Shown one piece after another: positions 3,685-33,083 of a stretch of 34,130 bases of DNA. The stretch lies in the sequence record SRR22947725_1903. One strand, given 5' to 3'. Made by a program: the position numbers and the translations under genes. Numbering within the stretch: the first letter of the stretch is position 1; each line of letters opens with the position of its first letter. Below the pieces are notes generated by a model. The model was not told the DNA's origin. It was given only the letters and a program-made list of their open reading frames with translations, and searched no databases.

Positions 3685-5340
3685 ATGATTACTCGTTATC
3701 TTATATTTATTTTGGCAATCCTATGCTTTTCTAATCTTCAGGGGCAACCTTCCAAAAAACCAAATGTAGTGCTTATCATAATTGATGACTTAAACGATTT
3801 TCCTGAAGGTTTCTATGGACATCCACAGGCTAAAACGCCACACATGAAAGCTTTGGGAGTCTCTAGCACACGATTTAAACATGCCTATTCAAACAACCCT
3901 ATGTGCGGCCCCTCACGAGCGAGTATGTTTACGGGTGTATACCCACACAACGCATCTCATTTTTGGATGAAATCGTGGTTAGATAACGAAGTGCTGGCCA
4001 ACACCAAGACCATTATGGAAAAATTTAAAGATGATGGTTACCATGTAATTGGAAGTGGCAAAGTCCTTCATCACAACAAAGAGGATGTGTGGTCTGAATT
4101 TAAATACAAAGCAGATTACAGCCCCTTTGTTTACGCAGGCGATTATGACCGTAAGAAAAAGCCTATCTCTCATCCTGATGTACCCGCTCCTTTTAGAACC
4201 AATCGTATCGTTGATGGACTCAATATGGGGGGTGGTTTTATAGATGGTTCTTATGGCCCTATGAAAAACTTTGGGGAACAAACTTTCAATGGCGAACGGC
4301 TATGGTGGGTCTATGGCGGGTTTCGAAGTGGGAAAGAACTAAAATATCATAATGATAAAGACCGTGATTTAACGCCCGATGAATTAAATGCACAATGGGC
4401 TGAAAAGCGCCTCTTGGAGTTGGCTAAAGAAGACCAGGACGCTCCTTTTTTCTTGTCAGTTGGGTTTCTTCGTCCGCACACCCCGCTTATAGCCCCTCAA
4501 AAATATTTCGACATGTATCCTCTAGACAGCATTCAGTTGGCAGATATTTTACCCGGTGATAAAGAAGATACTTTTCTGCATTTGGTAGACCAGTTTGAAA
4601 CAAAAAATAGAAGAACCCGATCGGTTGAAATGTTTGAAAATCTGGTAGCCTCTTATAAAGATCCAAACGAAGGCTTAAAGCGTTTTACGCAAGCTTACTT
4701 GGCCTGTGTAACCGCTGTTGATGACAATGTAGGTCAAGTGATGCGTGCTATTAACAATACTTCGCTCAAAGACAATACGATTGTAATATTGACGAGTGAC
4801 CACGGTTGGACTATGGGAGAGAAAGATCACATTTACAAAAACTCATTATGGGAAGAAAGCACAAGAGTACCTCTAATTATTCGAGTTCCAGAAATGACTG
4901 TGCCAAATACGGTCGTTGAGCATCCTGTTTCTTTAATAGATGTATATCCTACTCTTTTGGAATTGGCAGGAATTGATCTAGAAACGCGAAAAAACAAAAA
5001 AGGGCATGGACTAGATGGGTATTCTCTTGCTCCTTTTTTAAAAAATCCAAATACAGATAATTGGCAAGGTCCAGAGGGGGCTTTGTCAGTAGTTTACAGT
5101 TCGGATTTAAATAAAAACATCCCAGAAAATCATCACTATTCAATACGCACAAAAGACTATCGCTACATCGTATACAACACTGGGCAAGAGGAGTTGTATG
5201 ATAAAAATTTAGATCCAAAAGAACGAAACAATCTAATTTTTGGTAAATCACATCCCAAGACAACAAATATGAGAGCTTTGATGAAAAATATTACTTACCC
5301 AATGGTGCCGCAAGGAATTACATTGATTGAAGACAACTAA
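3685..5340 (+). CDS. S1 (formylglycine) sulfatase, S1_7/S1_81-like
   Basis: Signal peptide; KPNV..IIIDDLND, catalytic CGPSRASMFTG, GFLRPHTP, TSDHGW..GEK...KNSLWEE. Subfamily is from recall. Confidence 0.92.
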   Translation: MITRYLIFILAILCFSNLQGQPSKKPNVVLIIIDDLNDFPEGFYGHPQAKTPHMKALGVSSTRFKHAYSNNPMCGPSRASMFTGVYPHNASHFWMKSWLDNEVLANTKTIMEKFKDDGYHVIGSGKVLHHNKEDVWSEFKYKADYSPFVYAGDYDRKKKPISHPDVPAPFRTNRIVDGLNMGGGFIDGSYGPMKNFGEQTFNGERLWWVYGGFRSGKELKYHNDKDRDLTPDELNAQWAEKRLLELAKEDQDAPFFLSVGFLRPHTPLIAPQKYFDMYPLDSIQLADILPGDKEDTFLHLVDQFETKNRRTRSVEMFENLVASYKDPNEGLKRFTQAYLACVTAVDDNVGQVMRAINNTSLKDNTIVILTSDHGWTMGEKDHIYKNSLWEESTRVPLIIRVPEMTVPNTVVEHPVSLIDVYPTLLELAGIDLETRKNKKGHGLDGYSLAPFLKNPNTDNWQGPEGALSVVYSSDLNKNIPENHHYSIRTKDYRYIVYNTGQEELYDKNLDPKERNNLIFGKSHPKTTNMRALMKNITYPMVPQGITLIEDN

Positions 5341-5390
5341 GTCTTTACTTTTTAATAGAGAAATACACTTCTATTTCTGCTTAAAAATTG

Positions 5391-5398
5391 TATTTTTA
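5391..5398 (+). promoter_or_regulatory. Candidate -7 box of the AraC gene
   Basis: TATTTTTA lies 15 nt upstream of the in-frame TTG at 5414; no tandem boxes upstream. Confidence 0.4.
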
Positions 5399-5413
5399 AA
5401 AAAAACAAATAAG

Positions 5414-6289
5414 TTGCAACTCAAGTATTCCATAACCGAAAACGAAGATCACCAGAGTTTTTTTGTTGAGCGAAAAACCATACCCTATTTCGGAGTAGAT
5501 TGGCACTATCATGAAGAATACGAATTGTTGTATCCTATCATCGGAACTGGGGTACGTATTGTTGGGGATTGCATGGAGTATTTTAATGAAAATGAATTGG
5601 TTCTTTTGGGAAGTCAGTTACCTCATTTGTTTAAAAATGAAGTGCATGATTCTTCAGAAGAGGTGGACTATATTGTTATCAAATTTAGCCCCTCTCTGAT
5701 CCATTCTTTCGTGGATCATTTACCCGAATTTTCCAATATTAAAACAATGCTTGAAAAGGCCCGAAGGGGTCTTATTTTTCAATCCATGGACAGCTATGTT
5801 CTACTGGATGACATCATTCGTATTTGTGAGTCTAGTGGTGCAAATCGTTTGATTCAATTGCTTAAAACACTGGATCGATTGTCTCGTATTGAAAACACAC
5901 GACATTTGGCATCAGAAAACTTTAATCCAGCCACAGGAAATATCGAAAAGGAGGATCGGCTTCAACGCATTATAAACTTTATATCTGAAAATTACGTTCG
6001 TGAAATCAGTCTTCAGGAGCTATCGGATTTGGCTTTTATGACAACCAATTCGTTCTGTCGGTTCTTTAAAGAACGAACGGGTAAAACAGCTTTTCAATTT
6101 ATACGAGAATATCGAATCAGTAGGGCATGTCAAATGATTATTAACAGTCGAAAATCTATTTCACAAATCTGTCATGACACGGGTTTTAACTCGTTTTCGA
6201 GTTTCAACCGAGTTTTTAAGGCTGTAAAGGGAATATCAGCCAGTGAATATAAGAGCAAATATCAAAGACTGAACAATATTTCCTCTTAG
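5414..6289 (+). CDS. AraC family transcriptional regulator (cupin sensor + double HTH), CgrA-like carrageenan regulator candidate
   Basis: WHYHEEYEL cupin; C-terminal SLQELS..AFMT..SFCRFFK..TG and ICHDTGFNSFSSFNRVFK..KG.S..EY. TTG at 5414 preferred over 5327, which overlaps the sulfatase. Stop overlaps the convergent permease stop by 4 nt. Confidence 0.9.
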   Translation: MQLKYSITENEDHQSFFVERKTIPYFGVDWHYHEEYELLYPIIGTGVRIVGDCMEYFNENELVLLGSQLPHLFKNEVHDSSEEVDYIVIKFSPSLIHSFVDHLPEFSNIKTMLEKARRGLIFQSMDSYVLLDDIIRICESSGANRLIQLLKTLDRLSRIENTRHLASENFNPATGNIEKEDRLQRIINFISENYVREISLQELSDLAFMTTNSFCRFFKERTGKTAFQFIREYRISRACQMIINSRKSISQICHDTGFNSFSSFNRVFKAVKGISASEYKSKYQRLNNISS

Positions 6290-7329
6290 CTCAAACTATT
6301 TGAGTAACCAAGAATCACAGAAGCCAAGATGAGAACCACCAAGCCAACGAGCAATACGTTAAACGGTTTTTTTGCCCCTTTCCACTCACCCGATCTATAT
6401 GCCCAAATGTTACTTACAATCAGTGATAACCCTAACAACATGGGCCAACCGACAATATTACCTAGGTTATTTTCTGAAGCACCGTTCATGAGTGCGGCAC
6501 CTTGGCCATATAGGCCCAATGCTGCAAACCAACACAAACCAGCAATAATAGACCACATATAGGCCTTTTTAGATCCTGCTACCGAAAAGTTGGACCAGCT
6601 ATTATTTTTGACAATTAGTACAAGGCTATACAAAGCATTCATAGCATAGGCCCCGATAAATACAATCAGCCAAGCAATCAAACTTGCATTGCGACCATTG
6701 ATTCCATAATTCTCCGCAATTAGTGTAACATCGTCGTTCACGTTTGTATGACCAACTGCCAACAGCGATGATAATGCACCACAAACAACTGCGATAATAA
6801 TGCCTTTTATAATATTACCGCCCGATAGAGATGATGTGCCTTGCATCTTGTCGCGATCTATACCTGCTTTTGCCGTCAATACCACACCAATAATGGTGAT
6901 ACCAAGCCCTGCTATTACATAAGGAAATTGAGGTAAGCTGGTTGCATTTGGGTTTTGAAGCAGTGGAATAAGTGCACCCAGCGTTCCAGCTATACCCATT
7001 ACAATACCCATAGTTAAAGACAAACCAATATAAGGCACACTAACACCAAACATAATACCGCCAATTCCCCAAAGAAAGCCAAACAATATGGCAATAGATG
7101 CAGCACGTTGAGCAACTGGATCTGCAAAAACGTCTTCAATTACCGGCATATAACCAGAAACGGATAAGCAAGTCCACAACAAAGGAAAAAGTACCATAGC
7201 AATAGACACATGAACCAACCACCAGTTTTCCCATTTCAGTGGTGACATATATTTCATACCAACACCAAATGATCCCTGAAAAAAACTAGCAACAATAATC
7301 AATAAAAAAGGTAATACAATAGATTCCAT
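6286..7329 (-). CDS. RhaT-family (DMT superfamily) sugar/proton symporter, probable 3,6-anhydro-D-galactose permease
   Basis: About 10 hydrophobic segments; QGSF...MK....KWENWW, FGFLWGIGGI.FG....IGLSL, GEWKGA. Last gene of the anhydrogalactose operon. Confidence 0.85.
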   Translation of the reverse strand: MESIVLPFLLIIVASFFQGSFGVGMKYMSPLKWENWWLVHVSIAMVLFPLLWTCLSVSGYMPVIEDVFADPVAQRAASIAILFGFLWGIGGIMFGVSVPYIGLSLTMGIVMGIAGTLGALIPLLQNPNATSLPQFPYVIAGLGITIIGVVLTAKAGIDRDKMQGTSSLSGGNIIKGIIIAVVCGALSSLLAVGHTNVNDDVTLIAENYGINGRNASLIAWLIVFIGAYAMNALYSLVLIVKNNSWSNFSVAGSKKAYMWSIIAGLCWFAALGLYGQGAALMNGASENNLGNIVGWPMLLGLSLIVSNIWAYRSGEWKGAKKPFNVLLVGLVVLILASVILGYSNSLS

Positions 7330-7341
7330 GTCTGTATAATT

Positions 7342-8106
7342 TTAGTTTTTAAGTTGTTTTGTTATTTCTTTATAAGCATTAAGGATTATACCAACGTCAA
7401 CTGAATAGGATATGTACTGAACACCGAGGTCACGCCATTTGTGCGCATCAGATGGACTTTCGCAAAAAGTACCTATAATTTTGTTGTTGGCTTTGGCAAG
7501 TGCAACCGCTTTTAGCATTTTTGAAACAACAAGTGGGTGGTGCACTTCTCCAGGAACACCACATGATTGTGACAAATCATAAGGTCCTAGAAAAATAACG
7601 TCAATCCCATTAATGCTGATGATTTCAGCTAAGTTTTCAATGCCTGCCAATCCTTCGATGTGCACTATGGTTAGTGTGTTTGATTCAGCTGAAGAAAAAT
7701 AGGTTTGTTTCTCTGTATTCGTATAATCCGCAGCTCTTACATACCTGCACATACCCCGTTCACCTTGTGGGTGAAAATAACAGGACTTGACTACTTCTTG
7801 GGCATCTTCTTTTGTACTCACTTGGGGTACCTGAATGGAATGTACACCTACATCAAGTACTCGCAATATATTTGCAGGGTTATTTTCGGTTACACGAACA
7901 ACAACCTCTAGGTTTTGGGCTTTAGCCGCACGACTGATATTTTGAACGCTTTCTACACTAAGTGGCCCGTGCTCCATATCTAAAATAACAAAGTCAAAGT
8001 TTGCCAGCGCGGCAATTTCCACTACGCTTGGGTCTTGAAGTTTACAAAAGGGGCCATATACAGTCTGACCGTCCAACAATTTCTGTTTGAGCTTGTTGAT
8101 TTCCAT
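7342..8106 (-). CDS. HpcH/HpaI family class II pyruvate aldolase (probable 2-keto-3-deoxy-galactonate aldolase)
   Basis: FDFVILDMEHG, VRV, LDVG..SI.VPQV, P.G.RG, IE...G..NL.EI....GID..FLGPYDLS.S.G.PG; start directly follows the dehydrogenase stop. Confidence 0.88.
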   Translation of the reverse strand: MEINKLKQKLLDGQTVYGPFCKLQDPSVVEIAALANFDFVILDMEHGPLSVESVQNISRAAKAQNLEVVVRVTENNPANILRVLDVGVHSIQVPQVSTKEDAQEVVKSCYFHPQGERGMCRYVRAADYTNTEKQTYFSSAESNTLTIVHIEGLAGIENLAEIISINGIDVIFLGPYDLSQSCGVPGEVHHPLVVSKMLKAVALAKANNKIIGTFCESPSDAHKWRDLGVQYISYSVDVGIILNAYKEITKQLKN

Positions 8107-8107
8107 C

Positions 8108-9544
8108 TTAAAGTGCTACTGAAACTCTCTTTTTAACTAAATAATCTTCTAAAGCTAAGTGAGAGCAATCATGCCCGATACCACTGTTTTTGATGCCACC
8201 ATGAGGCAAGTATATGGCATATTTTACCCCATTGACTTGAACCTCACCAAATGCGAGCTGCTCTGAAAAACGATGGATGCGATCGCTGTTGTTGGTGAAA
8301 ATATAAGAAGCCAACCCAAACTCAGTATCGTTCGCAAGCATTAATACTTCTTCGTCTGTTTCAAATGACATAAATGGGGCGATAGGACCAAAGGTTTCCT
8401 CCCTAAACAGGCGCATTTCTGTGGTCATTCCTGAAATTACGGTGGGCATCATCCAATTTCCATCTTTCATTCCTTCTGGAATTTCTCCTCCCGCTAACAG
8501 AACGCCTCCTTTTTCTTTGGCATCATTGATCAAATCAAACATGCGATCTCTGTCATTTCTTGTGACCATAGGTCCCATGTCAGGTTTTTGGTCTATACCA
8601 AAACCAAGCTTAAGACTTTTAACGCGTTCAACATATTTTTCTAAAAACGAATTATAAAAGCTCTTGTGCACAAAAAATCTGTTGGCAGCAACGCAAATCT
8701 GACCACTATTACCAAATTTTATTCCGATTGCCAAATCGAGTGCTTTGTCAATATCTGCATCTTCAAATACAATAAATGGCGCATTACCGCCAAGTTCCAT
8801 ACTGAGTTTTTTGATAGATGTAGCACTGTCTGCGATCACACGTTGACCAGTAGCCGTCGACCCTATCATGGTCAAGACAGAGGGTATTTTACTTTTGCTA
8901 AGCGTAGTTGCAACTTCGCTAGTAGGCCCAGACAAAATATTGACCACACCAGCTGGAAAATCAATATCATGTATGATTTCACCTAAAATATAAGCTGAAA
9001 GTGGCGACAATGCAGAGGGTTTAATGATAATTGAGCATCCAGAAGCCAAGGCGGGGCCTAGTTTAAAACCCACATTGAGGAGCGGAAAATTCCAAGCCAA
9101 ATATGCGACTGCTACCCCAGCGGGTTGTTGAATCATTTTGTGGGTATGGGTATTTTCGTAATCTGGGATTTGCTCATCACGTAAATTTTTCATGGCGTTA
9201 GGATACCACTCTAAAGCATTAACTACCGCTTCAATGTCCTCCCAAGCAGCGTCATAGGTTTTGCCCATTTCATAAACAATGGCGGATCTAAGCAAGTGTT
9301 CGTTTTCAAGAACGGCTTCTCTGAGCTTTAACATCCATTGGGTACGTTCTGACAAAGAGCATTTTGACCAAAACTCGAATCCTTTTTGGGCAGCTTCTAG
9401 TGCCTTTTCAGCATCCGCTTTCCCTGCTTCTGCAATTTGAGCTATGGGTTTGCCGTCAGCTGGGCAAATAACATCCGACCTGGTTTTGGATACACTATCT
9501 ACCAACGCCCCGCCGATATACATTTTATGATAACCGAAATCCAT
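8108..9544 (-). CDS. dauA: NAD(P)-dependent aldehyde dehydrogenase, 3,6-anhydro-D-galactose dehydrogenase-like
   Basis: ALDH motifs AWNFP, IKPS, GST.TG, MELGGNAP (catalytic Glu), GQICVA (catalytic Cys), EETFGP. Sequence and context resemble flavobacterial DauA (recall). Confidence 0.8.
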   Translation of the reverse strand: MDFGYHKMYIGGALVDSVSKTRSDVICPADGKPIAQIAEAGKADAEKALEAAQKGFEFWSKCSLSERTQWMLKLREAVLENEHLLRSAIVYEMGKTYDAAWEDIEAVVNALEWYPNAMKNLRDEQIPDYENTHTHKMIQQPAGVAVAYLAWNFPLLNVGFKLGPALASGCSIIIKPSALSPLSAYILGEIIHDIDFPAGVVNILSGPTSEVATTLSKSKIPSVLTMIGSTATGQRVIADSATSIKKLSMELGGNAPFIVFEDADIDKALDLAIGIKFGNSGQICVAANRFFVHKSFYNSFLEKYVERVKSLKLGFGIDQKPDMGPMVTRNDRDRMFDLINDAKEKGGVLLAGGEIPEGMKDGNWMMPTVISGMTTEMRLFREETFGPIAPFMSFETDEEVLMLANDTEFGLASYIFTNNSDRIHRFSEQLAFGEVQVNGVKYAIYLPHGGIKNSGIGHDCSHLALEDYLVKKRVSVAL

Positions 9545-9550
9545 ATTTTT

Positions 9551-10720
9551 TTATTTCAATAATTCTTTAATATCAGCAACCCCGTTCGTTGGATTGGTAA
9601 ATTTATGAAGCGCATCTGGGTTAACTTCTAGTCCCAGTCCAGGACTGTCTGGCACTTGTATTATTCCATTTTCCATTTCTAATATAGGAAATGTAAGCTG
9701 CTCTCGCAACGCATTCTCTGTCTGATCAAATTCCAACAGAAAATCGGGGCTAAACATTCGTCCAGGAACAGACTCCAAGTTGGATATGAAATGCAGAGCT
9801 ACATGCAGGCCTATAGAACTACCCCAAGTATGGGGAACCACATCTACTCCATAGGTGGAGGCTAGCGAGGCGATGCGCTTGGCTTCTGTCAGTCCGCCAC
9901 AAGCACAAATATCGGGTTGGATAATGTCAACCGATTTGTTTCTAAGGAGTTGATGAAAGCCAAAACGCAAGTACTCACATTCACCTCCTGCAATTGGTAT
10001 GGTGGTTTTTTGCCGTAGTTCGGCATATTGCTCGTAGAATTCTGGAGAGACAGGCTCTTCAAACCAGGATATTTGGTAGGCTTCTAATTTTTTCGCCAAT
10101 TCAAGTGCCTCCATATAGGTGTAGGCATGGTTTGAATCAATCATAAGTTTGATATCGTCTCCAATGATGGAGCGTAAATGCTTCACATTAGAAACATCTC
10201 TGTCAATACCTAGACCCACTTTCATCTTGATGGCCTTAAACCCTTTTTCCAAATACCTTTTGGCCTCCTCCTCAAAATCTTTAGTCGGATTGTCTTTTTC
10301 TGTAAAATACATTCCAGTGGCATAAGGAACTACATAATTTCTGTGTACGCCCCCTAGCAATGCACCCACAGGCTGATTCAATAATTTTCCTTTAATGTCC
10401 CAAATGGCGATGTCTATAGCACTCATCGAGGCTACCAAAACACCACGGCGGGCAAAATCAAGTGTTTTGCGGTACATCTTGTTCCAAATCACTTCATTGT
10501 GTAAGGGATTTTGTCCAATCACCTGAGATTTTAAAAACTCAATTCCAGACTCCAAAATGAGAGCAGGACCATAGCCTTCTCCCCAACCGTAAGTACCATC
10601 AGAGCAGGAAATTTTAACAATACATATACAGCGCTCTGAATATTCCCATTGAGAAAAGAAAAAACTTTTTTCTAAAGTGTCTTTCAGTACAAAAGTTTCA
10701 ATGTTGGTGATTTTAGTCAT
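9551..10720 (-). CDS. dauB: Mandelate racemase/enolase superfamily, 3,6-anhydro-D-galactonate cycloisomerase-like
   Basis: SAIDIAIWDIKGK, KxK (KMKVG), metal ligands D(SN)..E(EP)..GE, QPD, PHTW. N-terminal F.FSQWEY resembles DauB rather than the agar L-AHGA cycloisomerase (recall). Confidence 0.8.
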   Translation of the reverse strand: MTKITNIETFVLKDTLEKSFFFSQWEYSERCICIVKISCSDGTYGWGEGYGPALILESGIEFLKSQVIGQNPLHNEVIWNKMYRKTLDFARRGVLVASMSAIDIAIWDIKGKLLNQPVGALLGGVHRNYVVPYATGMYFTEKDNPTKDFEEEAKRYLEKGFKAIKMKVGLGIDRDVSNVKHLRSIIGDDIKLMIDSNHAYTYMEALELAKKLEAYQISWFEEPVSPEFYEQYAELRQKTTIPIAGGECEYLRFGFHQLLRNKSVDIIQPDICACGGLTEAKRIASLASTYGVDVVPHTWGSSIGLHVALHFISNLESVPGRMFSPDFLLEFDQTENALREQLTFPILEMENGIIQVPDSPGLGLEVNPDALHKFTNPTNGVADIKELLK

Positions 10721-10746
10721 TAATTTTTAATTGTGTTTATCAAGTG

Positions 10747-10812
10747 CAAACTAAAAATTGTTTAGGTTGTTTATTCATTATTGTTTAGCATATATTGGTC
10801 ACTAATTATCTT
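10747..10812 (-). promoter_or_regulatory. dauB operon promoter: tandem activator boxes plus -7 box
   Basis: AAGATAA (10812-10806) and ATGCTAA (10791-10785) are 21 nt apart; TTAGTTTG at 10754-10747 (offset 41). Confidence 0.65.
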
Positions 10813-11118
10813 CTAACTTAAATAATCAACGATTTCCTCAGCTTCTTGTATGGATTGAATATATGCCACCACCTCGTCGTGTACTGGATATTTGGTGTAG
10901 GTCCAAAAAGTATCTTTGTTTTTAAAAGTAGAAACCAAACTGACATCAAAAAATGAAGCACCGTAGTCCCCCACATTGATTCCCGTTTCATAAGAGAGGA
11001 TTTCTGGAATGTGCGAAGGCAACTCGTCCAAGCGTCGCTTGACTTCTTGTGCGAGTTGAGCACGGTTCATGCCATTGGCATTTTCTTTCAATTTCCAAAG
11101 GACGTTATGCGTGTACAT
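10813..11118 (-). CDS. Dabb family (stress-responsive A/B barrel) protein
   Basis: 101 aa; M..HNVLWKLK, L..IPEI...E.G.N, FD..L.S.F......Y..YP.H, VDY: the typical Dabb pattern. Confidence 0.85.
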   Translation of the reverse strand: MYTHNVLWKLKENANGMNRAQLAQEVKRRLDELPSHIPEILSYETGINVGDYGASFFDVSLVSTFKNKDTFWTYTKYPVHDEVVAYIQSIQEAEEIVDYLS

Positions 11119-11131
11119 AATTCGTTACGTT

Positions 11132-11167
11132 AAAAAACTTCCCAAGTTAATTACTAAGGAAGTTTTT
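11132..11167 (-). terminator. Rho-independent terminator/hairpin between the T9SS CBM-like gene and the Dabb gene
   Basis: AAAAACTTCC (11133-11142) and GGAAGTTTTT (11158-11167) form a perfect 10-bp inverted repeat; on the minus strand the stem ends in T6. Confidence 0.7.
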
Positions 11168-11192
11168 GATTAATAGTTTTCTGTCAAAAAAA

Positions 11193-12005
11193 TTATTCTT
11201 TGATCAGTTTTTGTATAGCTACTTTTCCGTCTACAGCAGAAGCCTTTAGCATATAGATGCCTTTGGCTAGGTTTCCAACCTCTACTTGTCTGACATTATT
11301 TGACTGTGAGAGCACTTTGGAACCGGTAAGTGAAAATATCTCCACTCGCTCCAATGGCAATTCAGATTGAAACCTGATGACATCTTTCACGGGGTTGGGG
11401 TAAATATTGAATTGAAAATCGTTAACATCAGAAACCGAGGCTGTTGCAGGCACGACGGTTAAAGAAATATTATCGAAACTTAACCCTGCATTTCCCCAAT
11501 TTTTTGTAACTCTAAATGAATAATTTTGAGTTGCTGCAGCTGTGTAGGAAATGGTTAAATCGCTCCAGTCGCCCCCACTTGGCGTTACAGGACCAGCAAC
11601 GACAGCATTATTATTAACTGCATCAATTACTTCTAATTCATATGCCCCCGCTTGACCTGCAAGGTCAGGTTTTAATGAGATTTTATATTCGAATACGTCC
11701 CCGGCGGTCGCTGCAACAGCTCTTTGGATTACCGCGAAATTAGCTACCCCACCATGATTCATTTTTCCAAAGAAATCTGATGAAGCAGCCCCATTTCCAT
11801 CTTCATTAGCCATGGTGTAAGTAAAACCATCTCCCCAGCCTTGAAGGCCAAGGTTGTCGGCAGGTGAACCTGCTACACTTCCCGCCTTAAGAATATTGTC
11901 ACCAGCTGCCCAGCCGGCTTCAAAGGTTTCATTAATTAGGGTGTTTTGAGCATGTGTTTGAAAGCTTAAAATGAAAATAAATAATAGTGTAAATAAATGT
12001 TTCAT
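11193..12005 (-). CDS. Secreted protein: CBM-like beta-sandwich + T9SS type A sorting domain
   Basis: Signal peptide; about 165 aa jelly-roll-like domain (FE...QGW...GDW...SFDNISL); CTD IYPNPVKD...IFSLTG...LAKGIY.L......KLIKE. Confidence 0.85.
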   Translation of the reverse strand: MKHLFTLLFIFILSFQTHAQNTLINETFEAGWAAGDNILKAGSVAGSPADNLGLQGWGDGFTYTMANEDGNGAASSDFFGKMNHGGVANFAVIQRAVAATAGDVFEYKISLKPDLAGQAGAYELEVIDAVNNNAVVAGPVTPSGGDWSDLTISYTAAATQNYSFRVTKNWGNAGLSFDNISLTVVPATASVSDVNDFQFNIYPNPVKDVIRFQSELPLERVEIFSLTGSKVLSQSNNVRQVEVGNLAKGIYMLKASAVDGKVAIQKLIKE

Positions 12006-12016
12006 AATGTTTGAGT

Positions 12017-12538
12017 TTAAAGTTTAACGAGTTTATAATTGTCTATCGAGACTTCAGTTCCTTCTGCAAATCGAAATAATTGAAGTGTCACTTCAGATTT
12101 ATTTTGTGGTACAGTAAAATCCAAACTACGAGAAGCCCATGTACCATTATTAGGTTCTGCTATATTTTCCTTAGCTAGTTGTTGACTTTCGTCCCCTTTT
12201 CCACAAACTACACTCAATACATGTGTGCGCTTCCATGCAGGACCATTATTAACGGCTTTCGTTTCTAATGTCCAGCGGTAATGATCACCCGGAGTTACAT
12301 CTAATGATTTAATTAAAAAAACCTTTGCTTGAGTTGTAGAAGTAGCTACTTTATTGTCTTCTTCTTGCCCAACCATCCACACCGATTTATTCCAACCTTG
12401 AAATTGAAGAGTATTCCTTTTGGTAATTTCTGTACCTACTGTCTGGTCTTCAAAATCAAGTTCGTATACCAATTCTTGAGCAGTCCCAAAAAATGATAAA
12501 ACCATAATAACAAGGACCGAAAGCTGATAAAACTTCAT
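12017..12538 (-). CDS. Secreted single-domain CBM-like protein
   Basis: ATG at 12538 gives a signal peptide (MKFYQL...GTA); DFE...QGW...TPGD...GTW...SIDNYKL pattern of a galactose-binding-like fold. Confidence 0.75.
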   Translation of the reverse strand: MKFYQLSVLVIMVLSFFGTAQELVYELDFEDQTVGTEITKRNTLQFQGWNKSVWMVGQEEDNKVATSTTQAKVFLIKSLDVTPGDHYRWTLETKAVNNGPAWKRTHVLSVVCGKGDESQQLAKENIAEPNNGTWASRSLDFTVPQNKSEVTLQLFRFAEGTEVSIDNYKLVKL

Positions 12539-12566
12539 AAATACAAATGTTAAGTTGTTGATTATA

Positions 12567-12633
12567 CAAACCAACAACTAATATTGTATCCTCAGCTTGC
12601 AGCAATTATCATCTTAATATCATTTTTTAGCAT
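12567..12633 (-). promoter_or_regulatory. Promoter of the CBM-like gene pair: tandem activator boxes plus degenerate -7 box
   Basis: ATGCTAA (12633-12627) and ATGATAA (12612-12606) are 21 nt apart, with an intermediate ATGATAT; TTGGTTTG at 12574-12567 (offset 42). Confidence 0.6.
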
Positions 12634-12670
12634 ACTCAGTTCCTATACATTACCAAGATTAATAATTGCT

Positions 12671-12678
12671 TTACTTTG
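12671..12678 (+). promoter_or_regulatory. Candidate -7 box for the GH2 operon
   Basis: TTACTTTG 20 nt upstream of ATG 12699; upstream boxes are only degenerate (ATCTTAA 12611, ATACTCA 12632). Confidence 0.45.
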
Positions 12679-12695
12679 GCAGTAAAATTTAATAA

Positions 12696-15866
<3,171 letters not shown>

Positions 15867-15878
15867 ATTAACTGTATT

Positions 15879-17786
15879 ATGTACAAACAAATTAAATATC
15901 CAATTTTCGTATTGCTCTTAAGTTATTCTCTATGTGCTCAAAATCAATACTACTTGAGCAGCTCAACTGGAAATGACAGCAACGATGGTTCGCAAACACA
16001 GCCATGGAAAACATTATCTAAAATTAGCAATACCACGCTTGGTCCTGGCGATACAGTCTTTTTCAAAAAGGGAGATACGTTTCGTGGGCATTTTGTGGTT
16101 GATGGGTCAGGAACAGAACAGAGCCCAATCACTTTTACATCTTATGGAAACGGAAATCAGCCTATTATAAGCGGTTCGGACCATGATGATGGGGGTGGAG
16201 ATTATCGAGAAGCAATGCTTGTAACCAATCATGACAATATGGTTTTTGACAATTTAGAGATACAAAATCACAGAACAATATCGCGTTCTGGTGTAGGAGA
16301 TTTGATCAGTTTTGGAATAAGAATAGAAGTGTCTGATTCTAATGCAAACCTTAATAATTTTTCCTTTAGAAATATGACATTTAAAAACGTCTATGGTCTT
16401 TATTGGGTAGACCCAGCAAATCAAAATGCATTCAATGATTTTGAAGTATCAGGCCTGACATTTATTTCATCTTGGGGTGGGATTATCAATAATGTGATTG
16501 TTGAAGACTCTTACTTTACAGACTTGCAGCGAATTGGTGTTCATATTAAAAATACAATGGGTAAAACCTCTACTAAGAGAAATACAAATTTTGTGTTTAG
16601 AAACAATGAGTTTTTTCAAATTGGGGGTACTTGTGTGCTTCCAGTAAGAACTGAGAATTGCCTGATTGAGAATAATATTTTTAACCAACCAGGTGCCAAA
16701 ACCAACGACAAAATGATTGGTCGGGGTAGTGCTGTCTGGAATTGGTATAGCATCAACACCATTATTCAGTATAACCAAGCCATAAATGCCAAAGGGATTA
16801 TGGATTCCCATGGAATTCATGTTGACCATTCGAACGTGGACACCTTTATACAATACAATTACATGCAAGATTGCGAGGGTGGATTTGTTGAGATTCTTGG
16901 TGGAAACCAACGTGCTGTTTATCGCTTTAATATTAGCGTAAATGATGGATGGCGTGTACACCCCAATTGGGTTAACAGCGATCATACCATCTGGTTGAAT
17001 GATAAAATTGGAGGTGAAAGCGGACACCCTTCTATTGACAGCTATATATACAACAATACTGTTGTCATAAATAAAAGCGGAAATGATGCATTCGATACAG
17101 CAATTGATATCAATGGGCAAAACACCCGAATTTTTAATAATATTTTTTACGCTACCAATGGTTCTGGTATCGGTAATCAGCAAGGGAATTATGGCGACCC
17201 GAACTTAATGATGACCAACAACATGTTTTTTGGAAATATTAGAAATAATTTCAAAACCCTTGACTCAAATAGGTTGGAGGTTAATCCTGTTTTTTACAAT
17301 GAACAAATCGGTGACCAATATGGATTTCAAATCAATGGTTCTAGCCAAGCAATAGATGCAGGTGCAGCCTATACAGGGAATTATGCACATCCAGCCATTC
17401 CAGTGGGTGCATCTACCATTTTTACCAATGTGGAGGAATACCCGACAGTGGATTTCTTTGGCAATTCAATAACAGGAGATTTTACCCCAAATATAGGTGC
17501 TAGCAATGCGAAAAATGGAGAAATTACTCTTTCAAACAAATCCGATGCTTCATCCGATAAGGTTTACATTCAAAATCCTATGATGTCTGAAAAAGTAGTA
17601 CTTTTTGGTATAGATAAACCTTATCAATATGCTTTGGTTGATATATTGGGCCGAACAAAGCAACAAGGCTTTTTAGAAGCCAGTCAAAATGAAATTATTT
17701 TAGATCAGACTCTTAGCTCTGGTGTTTATCTTCTAAAGCTCGAGAACAAAGCCAATACGATTAAATCCAAAATTGTTGTGAATTAA
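15879..17786 (+). CDS. Right-handed parallel beta-helix protein with T9SS sorting domain (putative glycoside hydrolase, GH136-like)
   Basis: Signal peptide; YYLS...GNDSNDG....PWKT, PGD...FK.G; Asn-rich beta-helix repeats; D-x6-D..TFIQYNY..DCEGG; CTD ending LSSGVYLLK.......KIVVN. Confidence 0.8.
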   Translation: MYKQIKYPIFVLLLSYSLCAQNQYYLSSSTGNDSNDGSQTQPWKTLSKISNTTLGPGDTVFFKKGDTFRGHFVVDGSGTEQSPITFTSYGNGNQPIISGSDHDDGGGDYREAMLVTNHDNMVFDNLEIQNHRTISRSGVGDLISFGIRIEVSDSNANLNNFSFRNMTFKNVYGLYWVDPANQNAFNDFEVSGLTFISSWGGIINNVIVEDSYFTDLQRIGVHIKNTMGKTSTKRNTNFVFRNNEFFQIGGTCVLPVRTENCLIENNIFNQPGAKTNDKMIGRGSAVWNWYSINTIIQYNQAINAKGIMDSHGIHVDHSNVDTFIQYNYMQDCEGGFVEILGGNQRAVYRFNISVNDGWRVHPNWVNSDHTIWLNDKIGGESGHPSIDSYIYNNTVVINKSGNDAFDTAIDINGQNTRIFNNIFYATNGSGIGNQQGNYGDPNLMMTNNMFFGNIRNNFKTLDSNRLEVNPVFYNEQIGDQYGFQINGSSQAIDAGAAYTGNYAHPAIPVGASTIFTNVEEYPTVDFFGNSITGDFTPNIGASNAKNGEITLSNKSDASSDKVYIQNPMMSEKVVLFGIDKPYQYALVDILGRTKQQGFLEASQNEIILDQTLSSGVYLLKLENKANTIKSKIVVN

Positions 17787-17820
17787 TCGAATTTTAGCAC
17801 AAATCATTTAATGTCACGAT

Positions 17821-18765
17821 ATGGGTCTATGGAGAAGTTTTTTTGCCAACAAAAACACTGTAATTTCATTTCTCTTTATTTTTGTTACTTCATGTAATTC
17901 TCAAAACAATGGCCTCTCGGGTACTTCTGAAGATGATTTAAATGAAAACAATTCATCTACAAATCCTGTTTTAGCAAATTATGATCTAATTAGGCATGAT
18001 GATTTTGGATTTTTTGATGCAAGAAATTGGTCAAAGGGGCTTACTCATGGCGCCGATGAATCCATTCGAATGATTTGGAATAAAAGTACAGGGGGTGAGC
18101 ACCTGCTGAATGACAATTATGATGGATATCTTTTAGACGATAATGTCTATGTTAGTGACGGATTACTTTTTTTAGAAAACAGAAAAGAAACAATACAAGG
18201 AACAGACCCTGTAGGACAGTTTGACTATACTACAGGTTGGATAAACTCACTCCAAAAAATCAATTTTAATGGAACACAGAAAGGAGTGTACATTGAAATA
18301 CGAGCCCAATTCCCAAAGGGCGATAAAGTTTGGCCTGCCATTTGGTTAATTGATGATTCCACAAACAGAGGCTGGCCCCCTGAAATCGATATATGGGAAT
18401 ATTTTGGTCGCTTTTTTAATACCAATCGAACTGATGAAATGTTTATGCGTTACATATATGGACTTTGGAACGATAAAAAAGACCACAGTGTGCCCATTGA
18501 GAATTTTCAGGAAACTTATAGTGCATTCAATCAGTTTTACACCTATGGATTTCTTTGGACAAAAGATCGTATGAGTTGGTATATCGATGACCAGCTCGTA
18601 CATACAAAGACCAAAGGTGTGGAAGTTCCATCAGCTGACTGGCCAGACAAACCCATGTGTTTGGTTATAAACAACGGACTAATGCGAGTTGTTAGCGATG
18701 AAAACACTACTTTTCCCAATGCACTTGTATTGGACTACATAAAAATTTACGAGGATAATAATTAA
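17821..18765 (+). CDS. GH16 glycoside hydrolase, lipoprotein
   Basis: Lipobox FVTSC then a low-complexity linker; IEIRA.FP.G..VWPAIW, catalytic EIDIWE, TYG..WT..RM.WYID, LDYIKIY. Confidence 0.92.
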   Translation: MGLWRSFFANKNTVISFLFIFVTSCNSQNNGLSGTSEDDLNENNSSTNPVLANYDLIRHDDFGFFDARNWSKGLTHGADESIRMIWNKSTGGEHLLNDNYDGYLLDDNVYVSDGLLFLENRKETIQGTDPVGQFDYTTGWINSLQKINFNGTQKGVYIEIRAQFPKGDKVWPAIWLIDDSTNRGWPPEIDIWEYFGRFFNTNRTDEMFMRYIYGLWNDKKDHSVPIENFQETYSAFNQFYTYGFLWTKDRMSWYIDDQLVHTKTKGVEVPSADWPDKPMCLVINNGLMRVVSDENTTFPNALVLDYIKIYEDNN

Positions 18766-18781
18766 AAATTATTGCGCACTC

Positions 18782-20470
18782 CTACCAAAACAACGCATAC
18801 AGAAGCGCAGTAATCAGCAGCACTCCAAAAGCCCCTACATTAAACGTTTTGTTTGTAGCAAAGAGTTGTTTGCTCAGCACGATGCCTTTAGGGTCATCCT
18901 GATTGCCCTCAAGTTTACTGATGCCAGCAATTACCAGTATTGTACCGATACACGTCAGCATCATCTGGTGCATAAACGGAATATTCACAAACATCGCCGC
19001 ATCGCTCCAGCCGTTGGGTGCCACTTTAAAGTACATCGCTATCGGAATGGACAATATTACACCCCAAATGGCTGCGTTGTTGGTTGCCTTTTTATAGAAG
19101 AGCCCCATTAGGAACACGGCCAAAATCCCCGGGCTTACGACCCCTGTATATTCTTGGATAAATTGGAACACTTGTCCCAGACTTCCCAGCTGCGGTGCAA
19201 TCAGCATAGCGATGATAAGGGCAACTAGTCCTGTAAGGCGTCCTACTTTCACCATTTGCTTGTCGTTGGCATTTTTATTGAACATCGATTTGTAGATGTC
19301 CATGGTAAATATGGTGGATGTGGAGTTAATCATCGAAGCCAGTGAGGATACGATTGCTGCGGCTAGGGCAGCTAGGATAAGACCTTTGAGTCCCACTGGG
19401 ATAAAGTTTTTAATCAGCCAAGGCGCAGCGTTGTCATTGGCCACGTTACCAGCGGTTCCTAAAAAGCCCTCACTGCTTAGCATTCCCATGTTTAGGGTGC
19501 CTGTCTCTGGGTCTAGGTTCATCACATAGGCGATGATGCCTGGAAGTACCACAATCACAGGGATAATGAGCTTTAGAAAAGCTGCAAACACAATCCCTTT
19601 TTGTCCTTCTTTTAAGCTTTTAGCTGCCAGTGTTCTTTGAATGATGTATTGGTTAAAACCCCAGTAGTAAAGGTTGGCAACCCACATACCGCCTATGATA
19701 ACGGCCAATCCTGGCAAATCCCACCAAGCATCTCTTCCGTTGGGGGTGATGATTTCTCCTTTAGATAATATCATAGAAAAGCGTTCTGGTGCTTTTTCAT
19801 AGACATACCGAAGTCCATCAAAAACACTGCCCGAGTCTGTGACGTTGGCAAGGGCAAAGTAGGCCATGAGTAGACCACCAATGATAAGCAGTACCACTTG
19901 CACCACATCGGTCCAAGCCACAGCCGCCAGTCCGCCCCAAAGGGAATAAGCCGCTGCAAACAGACCGAGTCCAATGATGCTGTTAAGCAATATGCCACCA
20001 TCTCCTGCTCCAATAATGGTATCCAATGCTTTACCGCCTAAAAAGAGGACAGTTGTGAGGTTGACAAACACAAAGAGTGCAATCCAAAATACCGCCAGTA
20101 TGGTTTTTAGGTTGGTACTGTATCGTTTTTCGATAAACTCCGGTATGGTATAAAGTCCCTTTTCAATAAAAATCGGCAAAAAGTATTTTCCAACCACAAG
20201 TAGTGTGATGGCTGCCATCCACTCATAAGAGGCTATGGCCAATCCAAGTGCAAAACCCGATCCAGACATGCCGATAAACTGCTCGGCAGAGATGTTGGCA
20301 GCAATGAGCGAGGCCCCAATCGCCCACCAAGGCAGGGATTTACCTGCTAAAAAATAATCTTCCGCGCTTTTGGTCTCCCCCTTTTTTTGGCGAGACACAT
20401 AGAGCCCGATGGATAAAATAAGTACGGCATAAAGCGTAAATATGGTAATATCTATTGTTGAAAAATCCAT
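18782..20470 (-). CDS. Sodium/sugar (galactose) symporter, SSS family (vSGLT-like)
   Basis: YFLAGKSLPWWAIGASLIAANISAEQFIGMSGSG, YWGFNQYIIQR, AAIVSSLASM.NS.STIFTMDIY; about 14 transmembrane segments. Confidence 0.95.
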   Translation of the reverse strand: MDFSTIDITIFTLYAVLILSIGLYVSRQKKGETKSAEDYFLAGKSLPWWAIGASLIAANISAEQFIGMSGSGFALGLAIASYEWMAAITLLVVGKYFLPIFIEKGLYTIPEFIEKRYSTNLKTILAVFWIALFVFVNLTTVLFLGGKALDTIIGAGDGGILLNSIIGLGLFAAAYSLWGGLAAVAWTDVVQVVLLIIGGLLMAYFALANVTDSGSVFDGLRYVYEKAPERFSMILSKGEIITPNGRDAWWDLPGLAVIIGGMWVANLYYWGFNQYIIQRTLAAKSLKEGQKGIVFAAFLKLIIPVIVVLPGIIAYVMNLDPETGTLNMGMLSSEGFLGTAGNVANDNAAPWLIKNFIPVGLKGLILAALAAAIVSSLASMINSTSTIFTMDIYKSMFNKNANDKQMVKVGRLTGLVALIIAMLIAPQLGSLGQVFQFIQEYTGVVSPGILAVFLMGLFYKKATNNAAIWGVILSIPIAMYFKVAPNGWSDAAMFVNIPFMHQMMLTCIGTILVIAGISKLEGNQDDPKGIVLSKQLFATNKTFNVGAFGVLLITALLYALFW

Positions 20471-20500
20471 GTTGGTTTAATTTTGGTTTTATGAATATAG

Positions 20501-21538
20501 TTAATTCTTGTTGTTTGAATAGTGTGTGGTTGCACAATCACGTAAGCGTTGTGCGGCTTGCTCAGCGGTGATGTCACGCTGGGGATTGGCAAACATCTCA
20601 TAGCCCACCATAAATTTCTTAACCTCAGCTGAGCGAAGTAAGGGCGGATAAAACGACATATGCATATGCCAGTGGCTGTTATCCCTTCCATCTGTAGGCG
20701 ATTGGTGTATGCCTGCAGAATACGGAAATGAGGTCTCAAAAAGGTTGTCATATTTGATGGTGAGTGCTTTTAGGATGCTTGCATAATCCGATACTTCTTG
20801 CTGTGAGAGTTCTAAAATAGAAGTAACATGTCTTTTGGGCACAATCATCGCCTCAAACGGCCATACCGCCCAATAAGGGACTAATGCTACAAAATGTTCG
20901 TTTTCCAAAACGATGCGCTCTTGTGTTTCGAGTTCTTGTTTAAGGTAACCTCCCAATAAACTGCTGTTTTTTTGTTCCCAATAGCTTTTTTGGCGCACTA
21001 CCTTTTTCTGTACCTCTTGCGGAATGGAGCGTTGTGCCCATATCTGTCCATGTGGGTGTGGGTTAGAGCAGCCCATAATCGCCCCTTTGTTCTCAAAGAT
21101 CTGTACGTGATTGATGTTTGGGTCACTCCCAAGGTCAGTGTATTCCTTTTGCCAAAGGTTTATTACCTCAATAATATCACCAACCTCCATTAGTGGCAGC
21201 GTCAGACTATGATTGGAGGAATAGCAAATGACCTTACACTTTCCTGACTCGCTTTCGGCTTCTAACAGTCCCTCTTTAAAAGTTTCTTCTGGACCTTCAA
21301 GAAGGGCTGCAAAATCGTTTTGAAAGCTGTATGTGCCTGTGTAGTCTGGGTTTTTGGCACCTCCTGCGCGCTCATTGCCCGGGCATAGATAACAGTTGGT
21401 ATCGTATTCCAAGCGTTCCACTTCTTGAGGCTTGTCTTTTTTGCCTTGCCATGGGCGTTTGGTGCGGTGTGGAGATACCAGTACCCATTCGCCAGTGAGG
21501 ATGTTTTTTCTTCTGTGTGGGGTGTTGTTAAAATCCAT
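20501..21538 (-). CDS. galT: Galactose-1-phosphate uridylyltransferase
   Basis: [47 protein letters not shown] (HPH active site), KFMVGYE. Confidence 0.97.
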
Positions 21539-22669: not shown

Positions 22670-22750
22670 GGTCAATGGTGATGTTTATTGGAAAATTAGT
22701 CTTTTTGAGCGCATTGAATGCGACAATGATAATAAACGTATAAGTATGAA

Positions 22751-32409: not shown

Positions 32410-33073
32410 TCCTCACTTTTTGAATGATTGCAAGAGCTTGACGCACACTGTTTTCTAATTTCTTAAAATCTTGGTTCTTAACAATCTCTTTGCTGATAAG
32501 TTTTGAACCCATTCCAACGCAAGTAACGCCTGCATCAAACCAACCCTTGAGGTTTTCTTCAGTTGGCGATACGCCTCCTGTGGGCATAATACTGGTCCAT
32601 GGTTGTGGTCCTTTAACCGCTTTTATGAAGTTAGGGCCATAAATACCTCCCGGAAATAACTTCACAACTTCTGCACCCAGCTCTTCAGCCTTGGCAATCT
32701 CGGTGAGTGAACCACAGCCTGGTGACCACAACACTTTTCTGCGGTTGCACACCACAGCAATATCTTCCCTAAGTACGGGCGTTACAACAAAATTTGCACC
32801 GTTTAGCATATAAGCAGATGCAGCCCCTGCGTCTGTTACAGAACCAACGCCCATAATCATCCCAGAGAGTTCTTTTACTGCATATTTGGTGAGTTCGGTA
32901 AATACCTCAAGGGCAAAGTCACCACGGTTGGTAAACTCCATAAGGCGTGCACCGCCGTCATAGCAGGCCTTTAATACCTTTTTGGCGACTTCGATATCGC
33001 TGTGGAAGAAAAGAGGCACCATGCCGCTCTCTTTCATCGTTTGTGCTATTTCTATTCTTGTAAACTGTGCCAT
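32402..33073 (-). CDS. eda: KDPG/KHG aldolase (bifunctional 4-hydroxy-2-oxoglutarate/2-dehydro-3-deoxy-phosphogluconate aldolase)
   Basis: EFTNR, GVGSV.D, GA.F.V.P, PGC.S.TE, Schiff-base VKLFP, MPTGGV, VGMGS. Confidence 0.93.
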   Translation of the reverse strand: MAQFTRIEIAQTMKESGMVPLFFHSDIEVAKKVLKACYDGGARLMEFTNRGDFALEVFTELTKYAVKELSGMIMGVGSVTDAGAASAYMLNGANFVVTPVLREDIAVVCNRRKVLWSPGCGSLTEIAKAEELGAEVVKLFPGGIYGPNFIKAVKGPQPWTSIMPTGGVSPTEENLKGWFDAGVTCVGMGSKLISKEIVKNQDFKKLENSVRQALAIIQKVRTT

Positions 33074-33083
33074 ATCTATTGGT

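Follow-up and report, generated by a model that had tools for sequence, protein, structure and literature searches.

We analyzed a 34,130-nucleotide stretch of DNA from sequence record SRR22947725_1903, the whole of which we call the window, and within it a putative operon for the catabolism of 3,6-anhydro-D-galactose (D-AnG) that carries an HpcH/HpaI-family aldolase. Five genes follow one another on the minus strand. The first encodes a Dabb (dimeric alpha/beta-barrel) protein of 101 amino acids (aa) (positions 10813-11118; PF07876) and lies 92 nt upstream of a gene for a DauB-like cycloisomerase of the enolase superfamily (389 aa; 9551-10720; MR_MLE_N and MR_MLE_C, PF02746 and PF13378). This is followed by a DauA-like aldehyde dehydrogenase (478 aa; 8108-9544; Pfam Aldedh, PF00171), the HpcH/HpaI aldolase (254 aa; 7342-8106; PF03328), and a RhaT/DMT-type sugar:H+ symporter that probably imports the anhydro-sugar (347 aa; 6286-7329; Pfam RhaT). 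An earlier note, made from the letters of this DNA, had described the last four genes as a tightly coupled operon, and the open reading frame (ORF) coordinates confirm this, with gaps of 6, 1, and 12 nt. A gene for an AraC-family regulator on the plus strand (5327-6289; HTH_18 and HTH_AraC) is convergent with the operon and overlaps the end of rhaT by 4 nt.

DauA, DauB, and the HpcH aldolase

We found that the closest solved relative of the cycloisomerase is Zobellia DauB (PDB 5olc), with an E value of 8.7e-146 and 489 bits. The portions of PMC5698469 that deal with this structure identify it as DauB/ZGAL_3156. The second-best solved relative, the galactarolactone cycloisomerase AtGCI (4ggb), followed at 3.6e-93 and 316 bits, and the L-anhydrogalactonate (L-AHGA) cycloisomerase 5xd7 at 3.7e-39. 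The dehydrogenase matched 6pnu best (E of 7.7e-152, 509 bits; next match, 4e-99 and 336 bits), and 6PNU belongs to the PDB depositions of the Pseudoalteromonas study in which DauA was assayed and solved (PMC6923384). The dehydrogenase scored under every NCBIfam equivalog cut-off. In a quick tree of 41 DauB rows, none of which was dropped, the cycloisomerase grouped with the DauBs of loci that carry DgoK and DgoA (SH-like approximate likelihood ratio test [SH-aLRT], 96), apart from paralogous enolases. The earlier note had placed DauA- and DauB-type enzymes upstream of the aldolase and had named clustering with enzymes for other substrates as a sign to the contrary; the first is borne out by solved relatives far ahead of the next matches, and in the quick tree the cycloisomerase showed no such clustering. 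On the strength of these similarities, we accept 9551-10720 and 8108-9544 as homologues of DauB and DauA.

The aldolase matched PF03328 with 126 bits (cut-off, 25) over residues 20 to 244. It did not reach the equivalog models of the characterized enzymes in this family: the scores were 171.8 for HpaI (TIGR02311; cut-off, 368.8), 168.5 and 165.7 for GarL (TIGR03239 and NF007849; cut-offs, 406.75 and 393), and 117.5 for RhmA (NF007521; cut-off, 441). Because it falls so far below these cut-offs, HpcH is, by its scores, a subfamily separate from HpaI, GarL, and RhmA. Solved members of the family are about equidistant from it, at E values of about 1e-32 to 1e-35. Automatic annotation names these genes "4-hydroxy-2-oxoheptanedioate aldolase," and the genera recorded for homologues of HpcH include Postechiella, Seonamhaeicola, Algibacter, and Lutimonas. 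Residues H46, R71, E151, and D177 are invariant in all 18 aligned homologues and in every further tabulated homologue that covers the residue.

One of the solved relatives, AbHpaI of Acinetobacter baumannii (7et8 series; E of 5.8e-34 for 7et8), is of particular relevance. The portions of the AbHpaI paper that cover its substrates (PMC8560999) report that it cleaves (4R)-2-keto-3-deoxy-D-galactonate (KDGal) to pyruvate and D-glyceraldehyde in vitro and that its Arg72, with which R71 of HpcH aligns, contacts the 4-OH of KDGal. The proposed cleavage therefore has a precedent in the family. The two proteins share the Pfam family and the aligned His/Arg/Glu/Asp set, but they are distant, and the same portions of PMC8560999 give AbHpaI a role in 4-hydroxyphenylacetate degradation, with KDGal as a side substrate of low kcat. 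They also differ in a loop that, by alignment to AbHpaI, lies in the distal pocket and reads RGMCRYVR in the window and RGVGAALAR in AbHpaI.

The HpcH gene appeared mosaic when the close relatives L004, L007, L015, and L017 were compared with the window. L004 and L015 show 91 to 99% nucleotide identity over most of DauB, DauA, and RhaT, but this falls to 63 to 73% over a central stretch of ~450 nt in HpcH. The divergent block of L007 and L017 runs on from HpcH through RhaT. Variants in contigs from RNA libraries are concentrated at 8008-8101. This pattern looks like allelic replacement by recombination.

According to our model, the operon serves D-AnG catabolism. The RhaT-like permease would import D-AnG released from a sulfated galactan of the carrageenan type. 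By close homology to the assayed enzymes, DauA would oxidize D-AnG to 3,6-anhydro-D-galactonate, and DauB would open this to KDGal. HpcH, as a class II aldolase, would then cleave unphosphorylated KDGal directly to pyruvate and D-glyceraldehyde, a nonorthologous displacement of both DauC, a DgoK-type kinase, and DauD, an aldolase of the DgoA type. We take direct cleavage of KDGal as the best reading because AbHpaI, a solved relative, cleaves D-KDGal in vitro, and we estimate its probability at about 55%.

The comparison with the dauABCD system of Zobellia galactanivorans locates the difference. The earlier note had given a DauC kinase and a DauD aldolase as the last steps there, and the supplementary tables of PMC5698469 list both, dauC as dgoK (ZGAL_3154) and dauD as dgoA (ZGAL_3153). 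According to the portions of that paper on this gene cluster, a DMT sugar/H+ symporter (ZGAL_3157) adjoins dauB, and cgrA (ZGAL_3159) encodes an AraC-family protein. The window shares with this system DauA and DauB (the dehydrogenase gene directly follows that of the cycloisomerase), a symporter of the DMT/RhaT type, a regulator of the AraC family, and an abundance of sulfatases in the locus. In contrast, it has a single HpcH class II aldolase where Zobellia has DgoK and DgoA, its predicted products are pyruvate and free glyceraldehyde instead of glyceraldehyde-3-phosphate, and it holds no GH127 or GH129-like gene.

Modules that follow dauAB in Flavobacteriaceae

To look for DauB (E<=1e-70), we took 401 genomes, evenly sampled, from the large family to which genome G504 belongs; the genus count suggests that this family is Flavobacteriaceae. 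Up to 9 kb was fetched on each side, contig permitting, and annotated by tblastn and Pfam. We found DauB in 28 of the 401 genomes, at 29 loci. In nine of these (L110-L118), DgoK and a PF01081 aldolase come directly after DauA, as in Zobellia; the kinase of L118 was detected by tblastn only. Six loci (L092, L095, L107, L108, L109, and L119) have a PfkB kinase and a PF01081 aldolase beside DauAB, and these aldolases share only 20 to 35% identity (tblastn) with an Eda-type aldolase encoded at the far end of the window. HpcH directly follows DauA in nine more (L091, L093, L094, L096, L098, L100, L101, L104, and L105), and none of these modules was found in the other five (L097, L099, L102, L103, and L106). 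The nine HpcH loci come from eight genomes of eight genera; L094 breaks off in DauB at a contig edge, and its continuation, L122, reads DauA-HpcH-RhaT-AraC.

HpcH occupies the exact slot of DgoK-DgoA in the canonical loci. No DgoK, PfkB, or PF01081 gene was found within the fetched ~9 kb on each side of the nine HpcH loci, contig permitting, and no HpcH gene was found within the fetched stretches of the 15 kinase/aldolase loci. The gene order DauB-DauA-HpcH is not a chance arrangement, because it recurs in 9 of the 29 DauB loci, across eight genera, and likewise in 14 of 80 retained loci from metagenomes. In two of the metagenome loci, L026 and L042, it persists at identities down to about 50%. 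In the quick DauB tree, the DgoK-type loci formed one clade (SH-aLRT, 99), and 15 of the 17 HpcH-type rows fell in a single 22-row clade (SH-aLRT, 98) along with five rows without a module and two PfkB rows. Since a PfkB kinase with a PF01081 aldolase also stands beside the same DauAB lineage, the last-step module attached to DauAB appears to be interchangeable, with at least three alternatives in Flavobacteriaceae. The PfkB module would be another replacement of DgoK/DgoA, but one that still uses a phosphorylative kinase and an aldolase. Two other scans were made: a contig scan with a single protein yielded only six close relatives plus L008, a spurious match over 25 residues, and even class-wide samples of 401 genomes proved too sparse, with three genomes for HpcH (E<=1e-60) and two for DauB.

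The same complementarity was seen across whole genomes. HpcH was present at E<=1e-50 in 14 of the 401 genomes of the family sample, 11 times at >=60% identity, twice at 53%, and once at 42%. Nine of the 11 genomes in the first group carry DauB, compared with 28 of 401 overall, and these nine represent nine genera. HpcH lies beside DauAB in eight of them; in the ninth, G649, DauB is on another contig, and the two genomes without DauB are G555 and G927. DgoK was found in none of the 11 (0 of 8 with HpcH beside DauAB, 0 of 1 for G649, and neither G555 nor G927). Conversely, a search at E<=1e-50 gave no HpcH in any of the 12 DgoK-carrying DauB genomes, which are the nine canonical ones plus G716, G832, and G545. 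The last three belong to the four genomes that have no module beside DauAB and no HpcH; their DgoK is 12 kb away (G716), 105 kb away (G832), or on another contig (G545). The fourth, G504, has neither DgoK nor HpcH.

The most telling single genome is G541, which is 2.2 Mb in size and 98% complete. It keeps the arrangement Dabb-DauB-DauA-HpcH-RhaT-AraC-sulfatase, in which DauB is 89%, DauA 86%, HpcH 82%, and RhaT 92% identical to the window's counterparts. We found in G541 no DgoK, no PfkB kinase of the window's type (E<=1e-20), and no aldolase of PF01081 (E<=1e-10), which leaves HpcH as the sole candidate found in this genome for the disposal of KDGal. The operon of G541 is followed by another locus (L126-L127, C6:11056-51055) that holds GH10, GH43, GH3, and GH5 genes, several sulfatases (one a GH10 fusion), SusC/D, a xylose-isomerase-like gene, and an FGGY kinase, which suggests the use of sulfated xylan.

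A second kinase-aldolase pair and competing readings

The earlier note had reported that no DgoK-type kinase accompanies the operon. This was correct for DgoK, as the DGOK family (PF05035) matched 0 of the 25 window ORFs scanned, but it overlooked a PfkB kinase and an Eda-type aldolase at 32402-34130. On the minus strand, an Eda-type KHG/KDPG aldolase, probably a generic KdgA (223 aa; 32402-33073; PF01081), is preceded by a complete PfkB 2-keto-3-deoxy-sugar-acid kinase, probably a generic KdgK (348 aa; 33084-34130; Pfam PfkB), whose start codon lies at the window's last bases. The Eda gene passed the model NF005499 (380 bits; cut-off, 275) and failed the DgoA model NF006600 (74.8; cut-off, 207), and it shares only 31 to 38% identity with the aldolases of DgoK-type loci. 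We found in the window no gene with the attributes of DauD, namely, a DgoA-type PF01081 aldolase adjoining a kinase and DauA. The kinase gave sub-threshold matches to models of bifunctional kinases for KDGal as well as 2-keto-3-deoxy-D-gluconate (KDG). Its orthologues, at 87 to 89% identity, occur in four of the five HpcH-type Flavobacteriaceae genomes, each beside an Eda-type gene. None is a neighbor of DauAB; the distance is 92 kb or 1.2 Mb where both share a contig, and one orthologue is on a different contig. The pair (kinase identity, 82 to 83%) adjoins an altronate dehydratase gene and a gene of the mannitol dehydrogenase family in L021 and L123. Taken together, these comparisons suggest that the pair is probably a generic KDG kinase and KDPG aldolase (KdgK/KdgA) and not DauC/DauD.

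The genome nearest to the window, G001, is a fragmented metagenome-assembled genome whose Eda gene is cut at a contig end. In this assembly, too broken up for an absence to count, DgoK was not found, nor was a close homologue of the window's PfkB (best match, 19% identity). G001 has 8% contamination, and a DauB search of its GTDB family (66 genomes) and order (121 genomes) returned G001 alone. The closest relatives of the operon (G541 and G620) and the 87 to 89% KdgK orthologues are in the large family of G504, not in that of G001. Its operon contig (C18) is either a binning contaminant or the result of a recent transfer.

Several observations weigh against direct cleavage as the sole fate of KDGal. 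The KdgK/Eda pair belongs to the same sulfatase-rich locus as the operon, at its far end and about 22 kb off, and in L088, where HpcH follows DauAB, such a pair is found 7 kb downstream. In L044, L076, and L077, genes for HpcH (45 to 47% identity), Eda, and PfkB stand in a row. Exclusivity between HpcH and a kinase with an aldolase is not absolute, because G643 and G727 combine DauAB-PfkB-aldolase with a 53% HpcH homologue 11 and 29 kb from DauB; the neighborhoods of these homologues hold a sulfatase, GH16, GH127, and a major facilitator superfamily (MFS) transporter. Because kinship makes the genomes nonindependent observations, the counts of exclusivity are given without a statistic. HpcH at 61 to 66% identity occurs without DauB (G555, G927, L018, L021, and L022) or far from it (G649, in a housekeeping neighborhood), and therefore the subfamily is not tied to D-AnG alone. 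Finally, we considered the pocket loop, as RG[MV]CR[YF]VR, as a KDGal-specific signature and rejected it; it is common to a much wider environmental clade, at 40 to 100% identity, and does not discriminate. The check proposed in the earlier note, whether HpcH and dauCD exclude each other beside dauAB, thus gave a divided answer: HpcH and DgoK never occurred together among the DauB carriers sampled, but G643 and G727 hold both an HpcH homologue and PfkB-aldolase. The proposal of a direct split fared similarly. The homology of DauA and DauB, the slot of HpcH, and its exclusion of DgoK favor it; KdgK/Eda in the window and the coexistence of HpcH with a kinase and aldolase in L088, G643, and G727 do not.

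The fate of the glyceraldehyde is a further difficulty. The earlier note had suggested that DauA or another aldehyde dehydrogenase might oxidize it, and this route was not backed by our data. Glycerate kinase (PF02595) was present in three of the five HpcH-type genomes, not in G541 or G627, and MOFRL (PF05161) was present in none of the five. In G541, the single FGGY kinase lies beside the xylose-isomerase-like gene in the GH10/GH43 xylan-type locus. A Pfam scan of the window found neither a set of glyceraldehyde dehydrogenase and glycerate kinase nor one of reductase and glycerol kinase. No glyceraldehyde-handling gene is conserved next to HpcH; the genes that follow it encode RhaT, an MFS transporter, or unrelated proteins.

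HpcH might instead act on another 2-keto-3-deoxy sugar acid, from the same polymer or a cometabolized sugar, and leave KDGal to a promiscuous KdgK/Eda or an unrecognized kinase. The occurrence of the subfamily apart from DauB and the housekeeping context in G649 fit this idea, as do the sub-threshold matches of the window's PfkB to bifunctional KDG/KDGal kinase models. More distant HpcH members (44 to 48% identity) adjoin other enolase-superfamily dehydratases (L046, L049, L050, L055, L060, L068, and L069). However, the 1-nt coupling of HpcH to DauA, the conservation of the gene order across eight genera and down to about 50% identity, the complementarity of HpcH and DgoK, and the failure to find an alternative aldolase or kinase in G541 all argue against it, and we consider action on another acid unlikely.

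Another explanation is that HpcH cooperates with a generic KdgK/Eda, either by equilibrating KDGal and KDG at C4 through cleavage and recondensation or as an overflow branch beside a phosphorylative route. We find this doubtful. Consistently with it, KdgK-like and Eda-like genes share the operon's locus in the window and in L088, HpcH, Eda, and PfkB are adjacent in L044, L076, and L077, both modules are on the DauB contig in G643 and G727, and the pair is present in four of the five HpcH-type genomes. Moreover, most HpaI-family enzymes exert no C4 stereocontrol, according to the portions of the AbHpaI paper on stereochemistry (PMC8560999). Yet G541 keeps the operon, and we found there no PfkB KdgK-like gene and no PF01081 match. 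In all four genomes where it was located, the pair lies away from DauAB, and its 87 to 89% conservation across genera is housekeeping-like, as is its company of altronate genes in L021 and L123. Recondensation would also need high levels of free glyceraldehyde, for which AbHpaI has a Km of about 10 mM in the corresponding portions of PMC8560999. A more specific variant of this idea is that HpcH is a deliberately nonstereoselective "aldolase-epimerase" that converts D-KDGal to D-KDG via pyruvate and glyceraldehyde and feeds the housekeeping KdgK/Eda (as in the window and L088), acting as a plain nonphosphorylative aldolase in streamlined genomes without the pair, such as G541; this we regard as improbable.

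Least probable is that the operon does not serve D-AnG and is a galactarolactone cycloisomerase-like gene with a GarL-like aldolase, or an RhmD-RhmA-like 6-deoxy-sugar-acid set with a lactaldehyde dehydrogenase. Among solved proteins, AtGCI comes second in similarity to the cycloisomerase, those closest to HpcH include GarL and YfaU/RhmA, and the permease is RhaT-like, but the cycloisomerase scores 489 bits to DauB of Z. galactanivorans (ZgDauB) versus 316 to AtGCI, the dehydrogenase scores 509 to DauA versus 336 to the next match, HpcH is far below the GarL (168 versus 407) and RhmA (117 versus 441) cut-offs, the locus is full of S1 sulfatases along with GH16, GH2, and galK/galT, and the same RhaT-like permease flanks canonical dauABCD loci.

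The proposed direct cleavage follows a logic known from other pathways. In the routes of YfaU/RhmA with RhmD and of GarL, a 2-keto-3-deoxy acid formed by a member of the enolase superfamily is cleaved, without phosphorylation, by an aldolase of the HpcH family. The window operon shares this enzyme logic, but its HpcH is far below both cut-offs, and the enzyme upstream of it is not a dehydratase but a cycloisomerase whose substrate is an anhydro-aldonate. Archaeal and fungal aldolases for KDG and KDGal are Schiff-base (class I) enzymes. The nonphosphorylative cleavage by the KDG aldolases of Sulfolobus and Picrophilus and by the fungal L-KDGal aldolase, as described in the relevant portions of PMC11219438, has the same predicted net reaction, but the window enzyme would be bacterial, metal dependent, and fed from D-AnG. 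Where that 2024 review of KDGal treats the nonphosphorolytic route, it names fungi and archaea only (PMC11219438).

The general idea of a nonphosphorylative variant dates to Ficko-Blean et al. in 2017, who noted, in the portions of PMC5698469 on pathway distribution, that some species have no dauC and suggested a nonphosphorylative Entner-Doudoroff-like variant, with no enzyme named. Searches of the main text and supplementary files of that paper, as far as these were accessible, did not find "HpcH" or "HpaI" (PMC5698469). Gobet et al. in 2018 described Rhodopirellula with only dauAB. In the open full-text literature, PDF supplements and subscription papers (including Lee et al. 2016) being outside the search, we found no paper that ties an HpcH/HpaI aldolase to D-AnG or carrageenan catabolism. 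We thus found no report of the HpcH variant of the D-AnG pathway, which would be new in this sense.

Surrounding locus, expression, and significance

The operon is set in a locus that appears to target a sulfated galactan. The 34-kb window contains seven S1 sulfatases, a GH2, a GH16, a 635-aa secreted protein, a SASA-type esterase, an SSF (sodium:solute) symporter, galT, and galK. The glycan-cleaving part on the plus strand (12699-18765; Pfam) consists of a GH2 beta-galactosidase, the 635-aa protein, and the GH16, and this block is kept beside the operon in L002-L004, L007, L011, L012, L024, and L094. It is followed on the minus strand (18782-22675) by the symporter (Pfam SSF), GalT (GalP_UDP_transf and GalP_UDP_tr_C), and GalK (GHMP kinase and GalKase_gal_bdg), and GalT/GalK would feed the polymer's D-galactose half into the Leloir route.

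The 635-aa protein (15879-17786; plus strand) carries a type IX secretion system (T9SS) sorting tail and stands between GH2 and GH16, likewise in related loci. It matched no Pfam family, and its only match to solved proteins was an ~80-residue N-terminal one (6kqs and 7v6m). No GH127 gene and no DUF5696/GH129-like gene was found in the window, and the 635-aa protein is one candidate for the enzyme that releases D-AnG here. The nearest PDB entries to the GH16 (17821-18765) are laminarinases, at only 1e-24, and no carrageenase or agarase structure matched it at E<=1e-5. It may belong to the uncharacterized GH16 group of carrageenan loci noted by Ficko-Blean et al. Despite the many sulfatases and glycoside hydrolases (GHs), the 34-kb window contains no SusC/SusD pair. 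SusC/D adjoins DauAB in the related loci L088, L096, and L098-L102.

Other neighbors of the operon are conserved to various extents. The AraC gene is kept beside it in L002-L007, L011-L016 (except the shorter L015), L019, L020, L024, and L091. RhaT homologues with 49 to 92% identity flank DauAB in many loci of every module type, and the window's permease scores under the RhaT equivalog cut-offs of NCBIfam. Dabb is kept upstream of DauB in L020 (71% identity) and L091 (86%). In L092, L093, and L097, an unrelated ORF of ~115 aa that has no Pfam match (mutual identity, 43 to 63%) is beside or near DauB. Dabb or this ORF could be an accessory anhydro-sugar enzyme, e.g., mutarotase-like.

Two further neighborhoods differ from that of the window. 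In the PfkB-type loci L108 and L109, an esterase D-like gene, a zinc-dependent alcohol dehydrogenase gene, and a gene for a pyridine-nucleotide-disulfide oxidoreductase with Reductase_C lie beyond the AraC regulator. This set looks like formaldehyde detoxification together with a reductase of the P450-partner type, perhaps for the demethylation of 6-O-methyl-galactose. In L021, L022, and L123, which have HpcH at 61 to 62% identity and no DauAB, HpcH adjoins genes for a PhyH-family dioxygenase, an esterase D-like protein, two zinc-dependent alcohol dehydrogenases, a glyoxalase-fold protein, and a RidA-like protein; genes for KdgK, Eda, and the altronate pathway are 4 to 5 kb from HpcH.

At least half of the operon's sampled words were found in 19 sequencing runs from 13 studies, one of these runs perhaps being the window's own source, and six seawater metatranscriptome runs hold 68 to 76% of them. 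In the four RNA runs examined, contigs cover the whole operon stretch. Single RNA-library contigs bridge HpcH-DauA-DauB (X17, 7388-12547; X18, 7424-11257) and RhaT-HpcH (X15, 6119-7664). These data weakly suggest that the operon is expressed in seawater; a contig is no proof of a single transcript, and DNA may have been carried over. A scan of positions 5200-12700 for sigma-70 promoters was uninformative (24 promoter-like sites versus 20.8 expected), and a terminator scan of the same interval gave 12 terminator-like sites, mostly inside genes.

Kappa-, iota-, and beta-carrageenan have D-AnG as one half of their repeating unit, and dauABCD is the only route for this sugar that has been assayed. 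If our model is true, about a third of the sampled dauAB-carrying Flavobacteriaceae (8 of 28 genomes) would finish the pathway differently, with no ATP invested, free glyceraldehyde as a product, and a different energy yield. This would be the first bacterial, metal-dependent nonphosphorylative route for KDGal. It would also correct the automatic annotation of these aldolases and offer a ready enzyme for obtaining pyruvate and D-glyceraldehyde from carrageenan, of interest for both marine polysaccharide catabolism and aldolase biocatalysis. Among the HpcH-type bacteria are lineages with small genomes that turn up in many seawater metagenomes and metatranscriptomes.

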